Assembly (NCBI GenBank): GCA_016187485.1
Contig: JACPJO010000002.1
Coordinates: forward strand, 27,912 to 91,911
Source: Candidatus Uhrbacteria bacterium
GTDB taxonomy: Bacteria; Patescibacteriota; Patescibacteriia; UBA9934; UBA10169
DNA: 64,000 nt
Direction of reading: 5' to 3'
A program made the translations under genes and the position numbers. Below the pieces are notes generated by a model. The model searched no databases and was not told where the DNA came from. It was given only the letters and a program-made list of their open reading frames with translations. Shown here in pieces: positions 57,790 to 60,803 of the stretch (position 1 is the stretch's first letter; each line of letters begins with the position of its first letter).

Positions 57790-60225
57790 ATGAGGAGAAT
57801 CCCGATGCCTTTTGCTCGATCTTTGGTGTGCGTGCTTGCCCTTGTTCTCTCCGCCTGCCAGAAGCCCGTAGACGGTGACGGTGACGGAGCAGATGCCTGC
57901 CAGTCGTTCGTGGGAGGGTTCGCCCTGCGTCCCATCCCGCCCTGCGACTGGAACGATGCAGCGCCGACGATCTATCCCGGCGCGCCGGAGCTTTGCGACG
58001 GGCTCGACAACGACGGCAACGGCCGGCTCGATGAGCTGTTCGATGTTGATGCGGACGGGCAGACCATGTGTGCCGGTGACTGCAACGATGCCGACGTGAC
58101 GATCTACGACGATGCGCCCGAGGTCTGCGACGGGCTCGACAACGATTGCAACGAGCTGACCCCAGCGGACGAGACGGACGGCGATGGTGACGACGCGCTT
58201 GCCTGCGGCGATTGCGACGACGCCGACGCGACGCGATATCCGGGCGCCGCCGAACTCTGCGACCGTCTGGACAACGACTGCGACGGGACGACGCCTTCTG
58301 ATGAACTTGATGGCGACAGCGATGGCGCCACCCTCTGCGAGGGGGACTGTGACGACGGCAATGCTGGGCTCAACACGATCGATGCCGACACGGACGGGCA
58401 GACCACGTGTGCCGGTGACTGTGACGACGGCAGTGCCTTGCGTAAGCTGGGCAACCTTGAAGTCTGCGACGGTGTGGACAACGACTGCAACGGGACGGTG
58501 GATCCTCTTGAAGCAGATTTCGACGCCGATGGCGCCCGCGCCTGCGTTGACTGCGACGACGCCAACCCCAACCGGTACCCCGGTAATGAGGAAACCTGTG
58601 GCGGAGCGGACGAGGATTGCGACGGCGTGCCGTCGGACAACGAAACGGACAACGACCAGGACGGCTTCACGGAGTGCGACCTCGATTGCGACGATACCAA
58701 CCCGGCGGCTCATCCGGGCGGCACCGACATCATTGGCAACGCTGTGGACGAGGACTGCAACGGCCTTGTTCTCCTTTCGGAGCATCTCGATGCCGATGGA
58801 GATGGGTACTGCAGCAACGCCACTGTTTGCAGCAACGGATTTAGTCCCGGTGACTGTGACGACGGCAACGCGGACCGCTATCCTGGCAATGCCGAAGTCT
58901 GCGACAGTGTAGACAACGACTGCGATGGAAGCGCTAACGCAGACGAAGTGGACACCGACGCGGACGGCTGGCTTGCGTGTGAAGAGTGCGACGACTCTAC
59001 GGCCGACTTCAACCTCGATGATCTCGATCTGGACGGTCAGGATACGTGCTCTGGCGACTGCGCCGACACCGACGCCGATCGCTTCACTAGCAACGCCGAA
59101 GTCTGCGATGGTGTAGACAACGACTGCCTGGATGGAGTCCCTGCCGACGAAGTGGACACCGACGCGGACGGCTGGCTTGCCTGCGAGGAGTGCGACGACG
59201 CAAGCGCCGTCCGCTTCCCGGGTAATCCCGAGATCTGCGACGGCGTGGACAACGACTGCGACACTCTTGTGGATGTCGGAGATCCTGACACGAACCTTGA
59301 TAATGACGGGTTTTCCGCCTGTGCCGGGGACTGCGACGACCTCAATCCGTTCGTACGTCCCAATGCCACAGAAACGTGCAACGGCATCAACGACGACTGT
59401 GATGCGTTCACGGATGAGGGCTTCGATCAGGATGCGGACGGGTGGACGTCCTGTGGCGGGGACTGCGATCCGTCCGACCCCGCCTTCAATCCGGATGCTC
59501 CGGAAATCTGCGACGGGGAGGACAACGACTGCGACGGTCTGGCGGGAGTTGAGGAAGTTGATGGTGATAATGATGGACAGATGGTCTGCGATGGGGACTG
59601 TAACGACGCGAACACGGCCATCAGCCCTACTCATGCGGAAGTCTGCGGGGACCTCCTCGACAACAACTGCAACGATCTCGTGGACTTCGAGGACACGAAT
59701 ACCTGCTACGCTGGCTGTGTGCCCAACATGACGGCATCCAACGCCATCACCAACTTTGCCTTCGAGACCAACGTGGATGGGTGGTTTGAGGTGACGACGG
59801 GAGGGCCAACGGAAGATGCCGAGCCCCCGTACTGGGACCCCACGTGGGGGTTCAACAGCAGCCGGTCGCTTAGTGTGTGGAATCCGGTCGCTGGAGCTAT
59901 CGAAGACGAAGCTATTGGGGTGGACTTCACTCTTCCCACGGGTCAGATGATGCTCGCCTTTGGCGCGAACATTACGGGAACGGGCGATGCAAATCTCCCC
60001 ATCCACGTGGCGATTGCTTCTGCAGGCGACTACTCGGTGAATGGCGGAATCAATCCTCTTTCCCCCATTTCCCTCGAGATTGAGGCAGGTTGGCAGGCCT
60101 ACGCCTTCTGCTTCGTGGCCACGCCAGTGCCAGACAGCGAACGCACGCTCATCATCTGGTTTGGGAGCCTGCCGGACACGGCCGGTCTCTCGCTCGATGC
60201 GGTCGTAGCGTACCCCGCCCCCTGA
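57790..60225 (+). CDS. Lipoprotein with about 20 tandem MopE-type putative metal-binding repeats (C-D-G-x-D-N-D-C-(D/N)-G) and a distinct about 200-aa C-terminal domain
   Basis: Lipobox signal MRRIPMPFARSLVCVLALVLSAC. Repeats include CDGLDNDGNGRLDE, CDGLDNDCNELTPADETDGDGDD, CDRLDNDCDGTTPSDELDGDSDG, CDGVDNDCNGTVDP and so on. The non-repeat C-terminus runs from about residue 620. Confidence 0.7.
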   Translation: MRRIPMPFARSLVCVLALVLSACQKPVDGDGDGADACQSFVGGFALRPIPPCDWNDAAPTIYPGAPELCDGLDNDGNGRLDELFDVDADGQTMCAGDCNDADVTIYDDAPEVCDGLDNDCNELTPADETDGDGDDALACGDCDDADATRYPGAAELCDRLDNDCDGTTPSDELDGDSDGATLCEGDCDDGNAGLNTIDADTDGQTTCAGDCDDGSALRKLGNLEVCDGVDNDCNGTVDPLEADFDADGARACVDCDDANPNRYPGNEETCGGADEDCDGVPSDNETDNDQDGFTECDLDCDDTNPAAHPGGTDIIGNAVDEDCNGLVLLSEHLDADGDGYCSNATVCSNGFSPGDCDDGNADRYPGNAEVCDSVDNDCDGSANADEVDTDADGWLACEECDDSTADFNLDDLDLDGQDTCSGDCADTDADRFTSNAEVCDGVDNDCLDGVPADEVDTDADGWLACEECDDASAVRFPGNPEICDGVDNDCDTLVDVGDPDTNLDNDGFSACAGDCDDLNPFVRPNATETCNGINDDCDAFTDEGFDQDADGWTSCGGDCDPSDPAFNPDAPEICDGEDNDCDGLAGVEEVDGDNDGQMVCDGDCNDANTAISPTHAEVCGDLLDNNCNDLVDFEDTNTCYAGCVPNMTASNAITNFAFETNVDGWFEVTTGGPTEDAEPPYWDPTWGFNSSRSLSVWNPVAGAIEDEAIGVDFTLPTGQMMLAFGANITGTGDANLPIHVAIASAGDYSVNGGINPLSPISLEIEAGWQAYAFCFVATPVPDSERTLIIWFGSLPDTAGLSLDAVVAYPAP

Positions 60226-60254
60226 CTCGCATCTGCGTGATCGTTCTTCTCTAC

Positions 60255-60803
60255 TCAACCGGCTTCCCCGGTTGTTTCGTTTTCTATCTCAATAATGGTC
60301 ACGGGAACATCATTCCAGTTGAATTGGGCTTTGAATGTTGCGTTTTCGTTACCCCCCACCCACACACGCCAATTCATAGTCGGAAGCAATCTGGCACATT
60401 CATCTGATTTCCCTGGCGTTGTATCGAAGAAAAGGAGGATTTCATTCTTATCTTCACTTACTTTTGATGTCACATGTCGATCAATGCACGTGCCATCGAT
60501 AGGGATAGAACCTTCCAGATAATGTTGCTTCTTATCAGCTTGCCACAAATGCTTCAATATAATCTCACTTGGGTGGTACAACGACTGGTAGTTCTCTGGG
60601 GCCGGGGGAGGGAAGGGGGCCTTTTGGGCTGGTTTCGGTTCGGGCTTCCAGATAGTGAAGTTGAATATGATGATCAAAACAGCAAGACAAATAAGGATGA
60701 GGCGGAAAATTACTTGGGGCGTTGGTCGTGTCATATTGAGAAAGAGTGTATTACAGGAAGACACATGTGGCAAAACAAAAACCTGTTTTCCACAGATTTC
60801 CAC
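60255..60803 (-). CDS. Hypothetical membrane-anchored protein
   Basis: An alternative start at the internal Met (MTRPTPQVIFRLILICLAVLIIIF, TM anchor). Pro-rich linker, then a small globular region. The gene is lower in GC than its surroundings. Confidence 0.4.
   Translation of the reverse strand: MEICGKQVFVLPHVSSCNTLFLNMTRPTPQVIFRLILICLAVLIIIFNFTIWKPEPKPAQKAPFPPPAPENYQSLYHPSEIILKHLWQADKKQHYLEGSIPIDGTCIDRHVTSKVSEDKNEILLFFDTTPGKSDECARLLPTMNWRVWVGGNENATFKAQFNWNDVPVTIIEIENETTGEAG

Follow-up and report, generated by a model that had tools for sequence, protein, structure and literature searches.

Which of two overlapping reading frames is the gene, and what might its product do? A locus in Candidatus Uhrbacteria raises both questions. 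We analysed 64,000 nucleotides (the window) of contig JACPJO010000002.1 (GenBank assembly GCA_016187485.1, positions 27,912 to 91,911 of the forward strand). Near the end of the window, two open reading frames (ORFs) occupy the same DNA, one of 811 aa on the plus strand and one of 840 aa on the minus strand (Table 1); both are present exactly as an earlier reading of the letters alone (the sequence-only reading) had listed them. The plus-strand ORF encodes a lipoprotein built largely of repeats of Pfam family PF11617, and the minus-strand ORF is its shadow. The gene is a chromosomal gene of a metagenome-assembled genome (MAG) from an ultra-small uncultured bacterium of the candidate phyla radiation (CPR, or Patescibacteria). 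We read its product, with moderate confidence, as a cell-surface lipoprotein consisting of a stalk and a head.

The plus-strand product matches PF11617 (Cu-binding_MopE, 'putative metal-binding motif') with 306.3 bits (E 2.6e-93; the curated gathering threshold is 27 bits) in 12 separately significant stretches, far above what chance would give, and it is composed of 19.2% Asp, 10.5% Gly, 6.9% Cys and 6.9% Asn. The codon log-likelihood of the plus frame is 0.26 per codon, compared with 0.18–0.36 for five neighbouring genes, and an independent gene caller placed a partial gene on the plus strand in Logan contigs. Promoter-like and terminator-like sites bracket the frame. From the Pfam and codon scores, the two bracketing sites, the AGGAGA ahead of the second ATG, the gene call and the four stops in the antisense frame of the orthologue (see below), it follows as virtually certain that the plus-strand ORF is a real gene. 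That its product is a PF11617 lipoprotein, as the sequence-only reading had proposed, is very probable. In a search with eight combinations of strand and start, neither product had an exact match in the protein collection.

Bacterial lipoprotein precursors carry a positively charged N-region, an uncharged hydrophobic stretch and a lipobox of the form [LVI..][ASTG..][GAS]-C, with the Cys at positions 15–35 (PROSITE PS51257-type rule). We applied this rule by eye to MRRIPMPFARSLVCVLALVLSA-C23. It recognises Cys23 when translation is counted from the first ATG, and the same residue, then at position 18, when it is counted from Met6. The lipobox is kept in the orthologue P0122 as LSLCAC. Since the Shine-Dalgarno-like AGGAGA precedes the second ATG (57805) and nothing comparable is found ahead of the first (57790), the true start may be Met6, which would give an 806-aa product.

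Codon for codon, the minus-strand ORF reads the reverse complement of the lipoprotein frame, and it stays open because the sense gene contains no TTA, CTA or TCA codons. Its product is a mirror image of the sense protein in composition (18.9% Val versus 19.2% sense Asp, with 11.4% Arg and 11.1% Ala), has no match in Pfam, NCBIfam or PADLOC, and scores 0.006 per codon against the 0.26 of the plus frame. In the syntenic orthologues (loci L055 and L063), the antisense frame is interrupted by four stops and its longest open stretch is 277–322 codons, despite a higher GC content at third codon positions (GC3, 0.78). Across 38 homologous genes, the number of antisense stops simply tracks GC3 (0–3 at GC3 ≥0.9, 4–10 at GC3 0.62–0.75), and most of these loci leave the codon-aligned antisense frame open or close to open. 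Homologue hits to the antisense ORF would not discriminate, because the shadow frames of conserved genes are themselves 'conserved'; the comparison of stops in the orthologue is the better guide.

If the 840-aa ORF were nevertheless a real overlapping gene, it would be co-oriented with the flanking genes and tRNA-Val, all of which lie on the minus strand, and translationally coupled to an upstream 182-aa gene, whose TGA stop overlaps its TTG start (TTGA, 60255–60258). Its frame is also fully open where 5–8 stops are expected (from window codon usage, the gene's own third-position composition or the orthologue's rate), with P(0) of ~3e-4 to 7e-3. However, the start codon falls inside the plus-strand terminator-like hairpin, and the anomaly was picked post hoc among many genes. 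Together with the codon score, the mirrored composition, the lack of family matches and the orthologue's stops, this makes a second gene extremely improbable. Since the ORF was noticed for its length and its frame is not conserved, we treat the open frame as the result of chance and of a preference for C-ending codons, and the advice of the sequence-only reading not to annotate it holds.

The repeat array makes up 72% of the lipoprotein (residues ~52–636, ~585 residues). Pfam, a custom hidden Markov model (HMM) of the unit and the spacing of cysteines agree on 12 full units and two half units, the latter carrying the CxxxCDD half only. The spacing is strictly periodic (C-x2-3-C, 15, C-x6-7-C, 19), so that each 44-aa unit has four Cys. 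The unit consensus, aligned with homologous segments, is ExDxDGDGxxxCxGDCDDxDPxxxPGAPExCDGxDNDCDGxxPxD and shows the hallmark of PF11617, a conserved Cys pair flanking the P-G...C-D-G-x-D-N-D-C core together with conserved aspartates. The sequence-only reading had counted about 20 C-D-G-x-D-N-D-C units. We find 11 such motifs, or 12 with a variant at G315 in which Gly replaces the first Cys; the earlier figure is nearly twice the true count and coincides with the 20 [DN]x[DN]x[DN]G loops (16 of them strict DxDxDG), of which there are two per full unit. Array residues include 50 Cys, 176 Asp and Glu (an acidic fraction of 30%), 11 basic residues, 3 His and 2 Met, and the net charge of the mature protein is about −184.

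The four unit cysteines are invariant in a 32-sequence alignment, and the unit HMM recovers 11 units in the lipoprotein, 10 of which have the complete CCCC pattern. Among 1,489 units in 121 proteins, 90% keep all four; Cys2 and Cys4 are hardly ever lost and, when they are, mostly disappear together. The same two are the sole unit cysteines present in MopE and in a segment of acyloxyacyl hydrolase (AOAH; see below). This pattern of co-loss and presence suggests a core Cys2–Cys4 disulfide and an accessory one between Cys1 and Cys3. An AlphaFold2 model of four units (residues 453–632) has a predicted local distance difference test score (pLDDT) of 86.9 and contains neither helices nor strands, as would be anticipated if ions and disulfides give the chain its order.

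A tandem array invites the suspicion that its length is an artefact, and the sequence-only reading had indeed regarded a collapsed or expanded assembly as likely. The units have diverged to 60–86% DNA identity, Tandem Repeats Finder detects no tandem array in the gene, and the longest exact repeats within it measure 35, 21 and 20 nt. Logan contigs of four runs (SRR12113425, SRR12113428, SRR12113432 and SRR12113433) are 100% identical to the window over 59151–62801, which includes the 3′ 1.07 kb of the gene (59151–60225). They end at 59151, in the second copy of the 35-mer, exactly where an assembler working at k=31 has to break off. No independent contig was found to cover 57267–59150, a stretch represented by the window only. 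The reading frame and the four-Cys register run unbroken through every unit. Since only a single 204-nt loop is open to ambiguity and the 35-nt repeat, shorter than ordinary reads, is spanned by them, collapse or expansion of the array is unlikely.

Unit number does vary in the sister lineage, where locus L063 has one unit more than L055 and L056 (700 versus 655 aa). The tandem copies of the additional 135-nt unit (L063, 1675–1944) differ at 3 of 135 nt; either the unit was duplicated very recently or the L055 and L056 assemblies have collapsed it. This difference in unit number, the contig break inside the array and the stretch seen in the window only are the points that favour an artefactual repeat number and, with it, an 811-aa architecture that is not real. 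Against them stand the age and divergence of the units, exact repeats well under read length, the intact register and the agreement of four independent run assemblies, and we regard such an artefact as very improbable.

The name of the family suggests a copper protein, and 'MopE-type' metal binding was also the tenor of the sequence-only reading. MopE and MopE* of Methylococcus capsulatus (PDB 2VOV) and CorA of Methylomicrobium album have a single copy of the motif (residues ~3–44 of MopE*) and are surface-associated or secreted, and MopE* is stabilised by Ca2+, which protects it from proteolysis (PMC3423442). MopE differs from the lipoprotein in having one unit rather than twelve and two of the four unit cysteines. 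The link to MopE is thin and consists of this one short motif. No part of the lipoprotein resembles the core fold of MopE* or the residues of the Cu(I) site there (His132, His203 and Trp130/kynurenine). The only match to 2VOV covers residues 3–44 with E 0.12 for the single sequence and residues 6–43 with E 7.9e-5 for the repeat profile.

On the strength of that profile match, of the family name and of the 306 bits scored against it, the repeats could be thought to bind copper or another transition metal, as a MopE/CorA-like capture protein that scavenges or buffers it at the cell surface. A MopE* fragment lacking its first 24 residues lost binding in Cu(II) immobilised metal affinity chromatography (IMAC) (PMC3423442), and the 50 array cysteines could act as thiolate ligands if reduced. 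However, the high-affinity Cu(I) site of MopE* is formed by His132, His203 and kynurenine-130, all outside the motif; the N-terminal 46 residues, including the motif, are invisible in the crystal structure; the Cu(II) binding is weak, with micromolar affinity; and electron paramagnetic resonance (EPR) does not support coordination by cysteine. Even in MopE, what points to metal binding by the motif is indirect and goes no further than weak binding of Cu(II) (PMC3423442). PF11617 covers a small region of MopE and CorA and lacks specificity for them (PMC6189053). In the array, 3 His and 2 Met face 176 acidic residues within 585, and its cysteines, which are predicted to be exported, follow an invariant four-per-unit pattern typical of disulfides. 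A copper-capture role is therefore unlikely, and the label MopE-type is misleading.

Because acidic residues so outnumber His and Met, and because each unit has two DxDxDG-type loops, the chemistry of the array looks like that of hard-ligand, Ca2+-type sites, and it fits Ca2+-binding repeats stapled by disulfides. Thrombospondin type-3 repeats (TSP-1, PDB 1UX6; COMP, 3FBY) and the C-rich domain of teneurin-4 are of this kind, with DxDxDGxxD-type loops that alternate with disulfide cysteines and with little regular secondary structure. The PF11617 core C-x-D-G-x-D-N-D-x-D-G-x-x-D has been aligned with the teneurin C-rich core (PMC3278476), and a later 1.5 Å structure of the latter holds three disulfides and three Ca2+, with two of these ions in thrombospondin type-3-like sites (PMC9058538). 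The lipoprotein has loops of the TSP_3 type, a likeness at the level of the motif only, and shares with teneurin only the D-N-D-x-D-G-x-x-D core. Whereas teneurin has six Cys paired 1-3, 2-5 and 4-6 around an ExxCxDxxDNDxDGxxDC core (PMC9058538), there are four per 44-aa unit here, differently spaced. No sequence or fold match to these domains reaches significance; COMP 3FBY is among the top Foldseek matches, with E 3.5 and a template modelling score of 0.22. We therefore use the relation to thrombospondin type-3 repeats and teneurin as a working analogy, homology being unproven.

Besides MopE*, AOAH (PDB 5W7A–5W7F) is the only solved chain that resembles one whole unit with its Cys2/Cys4 pair. 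The similarity lies in the segment DCNDSDxxVYPG...D.DSNCNG, for which both the sequence profile (E 0.6–0.9) and the Foldseek superposition (local root-mean-square deviation of 2.6–3.6 Å over 24–46 columns) are below significance. In AOAH, this is a single unit within an unrelated eukaryotic lipase.

The array is followed by a C-terminal head. The sequence-only reading was right that this part is non-repetitive, but its length is 175 aa, not about 200, and that it forms a distinct head is borne out by homologues, which bear many different heads on similar arrays. The head has no match in Pfam even at E≤10 and none in PHROGs or PADLOC. Two word-indexed homologue searches, one with the single sequence and one with a two-sequence profile, found nothing, and tblastn against 54 related loci gave no useful result. 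An exhaustive phmmer search over 1.84 billion representatives yielded one credible match, P0122 (E 6e-4; pairwise E 1e-11), which is 28–30% identical to the head across the whole domain. A second candidate from that search, P0121, is a fungal-type ankyrin NLR and was discarded as spurious. A scan of metagenomes added only another variant of the same orthologue, and the variants are one single-nucleotide polymorphism apart within the gene.

The architecture of the lipoprotein recurs in P0122, which has a lipobox and nine PF11617 units. The junction is also the same (DNDCDGLVDYEDPTPCTNSC versus DNNCNDLVDFEDTNTCYAGC), and the head of P0122 closes with DAVEVYP where ours has DAVVAYP. The surroundings are conserved as well: in L055 and L063, a minus-strand tRNA-Val(GAC) (92% identity, same position) lies upstream and the gene for a giant surface protein lies downstream. 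At 35–44% protein identity, the sister lineage has thus kept the gene, the lipobox, peculiarities of the first unit, the head and both neighbours. Judged by these searches, the head is a lineage-restricted orphan domain, seen in one sister lineage only. Structure prediction of this part, suggested by the sequence-only reading, gave an AlphaFold2 model from the two-sequence alignment that is consistently beta-rich but, with a pLDDT of 41, is unusable for a fold search. Marginal profile matches to PDB sequences (E~0.03) pointed to NHL blades and are regarded as chance.

The gene stands out in base composition, with a GC content of 0.62 versus 0.55 for neighbouring genes (flanks, ~0.49–0.55). Its amino acid composition accounts for a GC of 0.57, about one-third of the excess, and the remainder is an excess in GC3 (0.72 versus 0.59 expected for the same amino acids at window codon usage). 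The same GC3 excess is seen in the orthologue (L055, 722–2689; 0.78). It could stem from an old transfer from a high-GC genome, from a preference for C-ending codons or from gene conversion among repeats. In the first case, the gene might be a passenger acquired from a high-GC, Myxococcota-like donor, with no adapted role in a CPR genome; its best non-orthologous relatives do come from genomes with GC3 of 0.8–0.98, and it adjoins a tRNA gene. Yet gene, lipobox, head and neighbours are conserved in a diverged sister lineage, so that any transfer must be old and the gene has been maintained, and a long PF11617 array is found in a further Uhrbacteria genome as well (P0015). We rejected a genomic island at tRNA-Val, since the gene is located 5′ of the tRNA, the arrangement is conserved and no integrase was seen. 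A passenger without an adapted role is distinctly improbable, and an ancient transfer would be compatible with the stalk-and-head reading.

Relatives of the lipoprotein are numerous. A full-length search returned >6,098 proteins at E≤1e-5, the closest of which, among the matches listed, are 41–50% identical over the repeats only. The top 121 matches have 7–27 units per protein (median 13), compared with 12 here, and named sources include Myxococcota, Phycisphaerales, Acidobacteriota and Zixibacteria besides the Uhrbacteria protein P0015. Arrays of this length are thus neither rare in metagenomic sequence space nor limited to two phyla, contrary to the sequence-only reading, which had called them rare outside Myxococcota and Planctomycetota. 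The heads fused to homologous arrays include FG-GAP/VCBS, Kelch, beta-helix, C-type lectin, LTD, fibrinogen-C and NIDO domains, among others. Like PF11617 repeat proteins of Myxococcota, Planctomycetota, CPR bacteria and others, the lipoprotein joins a long tandem array of a ~30–44-aa Cys/Asp-rich unit to a variable head; its orphan head, its CPR host and its lipobox anchor set it apart. We know of no PF11617 family member with a characterised function. The lipoprotein is a further member of this large uncharacterised repeat family, with an orphan head and in a CPR genome.

Many of the MAG records with PF11617 arrays (loci L001–L054) bear implausible labels such as 'uncultured Rickettsiales', 'Klebsiella pneumoniae' or 'Bifidobacterium breve' on contigs of 65–75% GC. 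These labels look like placeholder or erroneous taxonomy and are unfit for claims about distribution.

In the stalk-and-head reading, the exported protein would be lipidated at Cys23 and thereby anchored in the cytoplasmic membrane on its outer side. Core and accessory disulfides would staple every 44-aa unit, whose two DxDxDG-type loops would chelate Ca2+ in the manner of thrombospondin type-3 repeats and the C-rich domain of teneurin. The ~585-residue array could then form a rod that has neither helices nor sheets and resists proteases. This rod would hold the beta-rich head off the membrane, beside or through a layer of the giant repeat protein encoded downstream, and the head would bind a ligand, for which the matrix or a host cell is a plausible place. 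The varied binding heads of homologous arrays support a modular stalk and head. We also count a DsbA-like gene 11 kb upstream as support for a disulfide stalk, since an extracytoplasmic disulfide oxidase would be an expected requirement for an exported lipoprotein with 54 cysteines. A stalk held by Ca2+ and disulfides is reasonably likely, and assignment of the head as a ligand-binding or adhesion module is tentative.

Several points weigh against this reading. A Pfam scan of the lipoprotein at E≤0.01 reports PF11617 only and no TSP_3, and the repeat profile retrieves no teneurin, thrombospondin or COMP chains from the PDB at E≤10. Ca2+ binding is suggested by resemblance at the level of the motif, and the putative disulfide pairing by statistics of co-loss only. 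A literature search turned up no metal-binding measurement for any PF11617 array. The first 24 residues of MopE*, on which its weak Cu(II)-IMAC binding depends, overlap the motif, which makes a role in transition-metal binding possible (PMC3423442). Finally, neither a fold nor a ligand could be assigned to the head, given the low pLDDT of its model and the marginal NHL-like matches. A bolder version would see PF11617 arrays as a widespread prokaryotic 'calcium wire', a structural class with no solved example that is held by Ca2+ and disulfides, lacks helices and sheets, and either shares ancestry with thrombospondin type-3 repeats and the C-rich domain of teneurin or has converged on them; in this Uhrbacteria lineage, the wire would present an orphan head of new fold that, together with the adjoining giant repeat protein, attaches the episymbiont to its host. 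We put this forward as a speculation that is rather unlikely to hold.

At this locus, annotating the longest ORF would mean picking the wrong strand, a trap that most homologous genes share; for gene callers and curators, the frame that matches PF11617 is preferable. The name 'Cu-binding_MopE' suggests copper, a reading for which the evidence gives no support. The surface proteins of CPR bacteria, which live in attachment to hosts, are for the most part uncharacterised. The genes of the lipid-anchored stalk-and-head protein and of the giant repeat protein form a conserved pair and make a reasonable candidate for an attachment apparatus, and the orphan head is a defined target for structure determination. 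The finding overturns nothing in current understanding; it is largely ordinary and of modest interest.

Table 1. Features of the lipoprotein locus (window coordinates)
Feature	Position	Strand	Basis or remark
tRNA-Val(GAC)	57595..57671	−	Directly upstream of the lipoprotein gene; conserved neighbour
Sigma-70-like promoter candidate, TTGACG - 17 nt spacer - TAAAGT	57714..57742	+	Consensus scan, 9/12 matches; predicted
Antisense shadow ORF, 840 aa, complement of the lipoprotein frame	57736..60258	−	Not a gene
PF11617-repeat lipoprotein coding sequence, 811 aa from first ATG, stop included	57790..60225	+	ORF, Pfam, codon score, independent gene call
Signal peptide MRRIPMPFARSLVCVLALVLSA and lipobox Cys23 (L-S-A-C)	57790..57858	+	Sequence; orthologue P0122 also with lipobox
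Shine-Dalgarno-like AGGAGA	57793..57798	+	6 nt ahead of second ATG (57805); read from sequence
Array of 12 full and 2 half PF11617 units (unit length ~44 aa, 132 nt), residues 52-636	57943..59697	+	Pfam, unit HMM, cysteine spacing
35-mer, first copy	58942..58976	+	The only exact repeat of at least 31 nt in the gene
35-mer, second copy	59146..59180	+	204 nt downstream of the first; k=31 Logan contigs break here, at 59151
C-x3-C junction (Cys639, Cys643) and C-terminal head, residues 637-811 (175 aa from N637)	59698..60222	+	Junction conserved; head orphan, beta-rich in model
Intrinsic-terminator-like hairpin CAACCGG-CTTCC-CCGGTTG and T-run	60256..60274	+	31 nt past the stop codon; terminator-like site
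Giant membrane-anchored surface-protein gene, at least 1003 aa within the window	60991..64000	+	Runs past the window end; conserved downstream neighbour

The records of proteins flanking the lipoprotein locus are NCBI MBI2484682 to MBI2484694, as established by exact lookups, and housekeeping genes around it encode UvrA, ribosomal protein L19, RluA, guanylate kinase and the CCA-adding enzyme. A scan of 56500–61500 against Rfam found tRNA only. The giant surface-protein ORF consists of nearly identical tandem repeats of ~110 aa (GAPPAILS.T.DDT.G.G.VD...), and its N-terminus has a homologue in L055, in the gene that follows the orthologue there. Because these repeats are so similar, the repeat number that is truly at risk of mis-assembly in the window is that of the giant gene. 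The Logan contigs end inside its ORF, at ~62796–62801.

Between the lipoprotein gene and the giant gene lies the 182-aa minus-strand ORF with a transmembrane segment (60255–60803), recorded as NCBI MBI2484694, 'OadG family protein', and annotated there at 159 aa. The plus-strand terminator hairpin overlaps its last codons. The ORF is absent from L055 and L063, where the lipoprotein and giant genes are ~234 nt apart.

The DsbA/Thioredoxin_4-like gene (239 aa) occupies ~45600–46318 (plus strand). Directly downstream of it is a gene for a 443-aa protein with a T4SS_pilin Pfam match (46315–47646, plus strand), and a SecG gene adjoins the two. A 199-aa ORF with a PaaX_M (Cas2-like) domain is located at 56687–57286 on the minus strand, and Logan contigs from several runs all stop inside it, at ~57266. 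AUA is normally decoded in bacteria by a lysidine-modified tRNA with the anticodon CAU. The window also contains, by an ARAGORN call only, an unusual tRNA-Ile with the anticodon UAU (53385–53459, plus strand).

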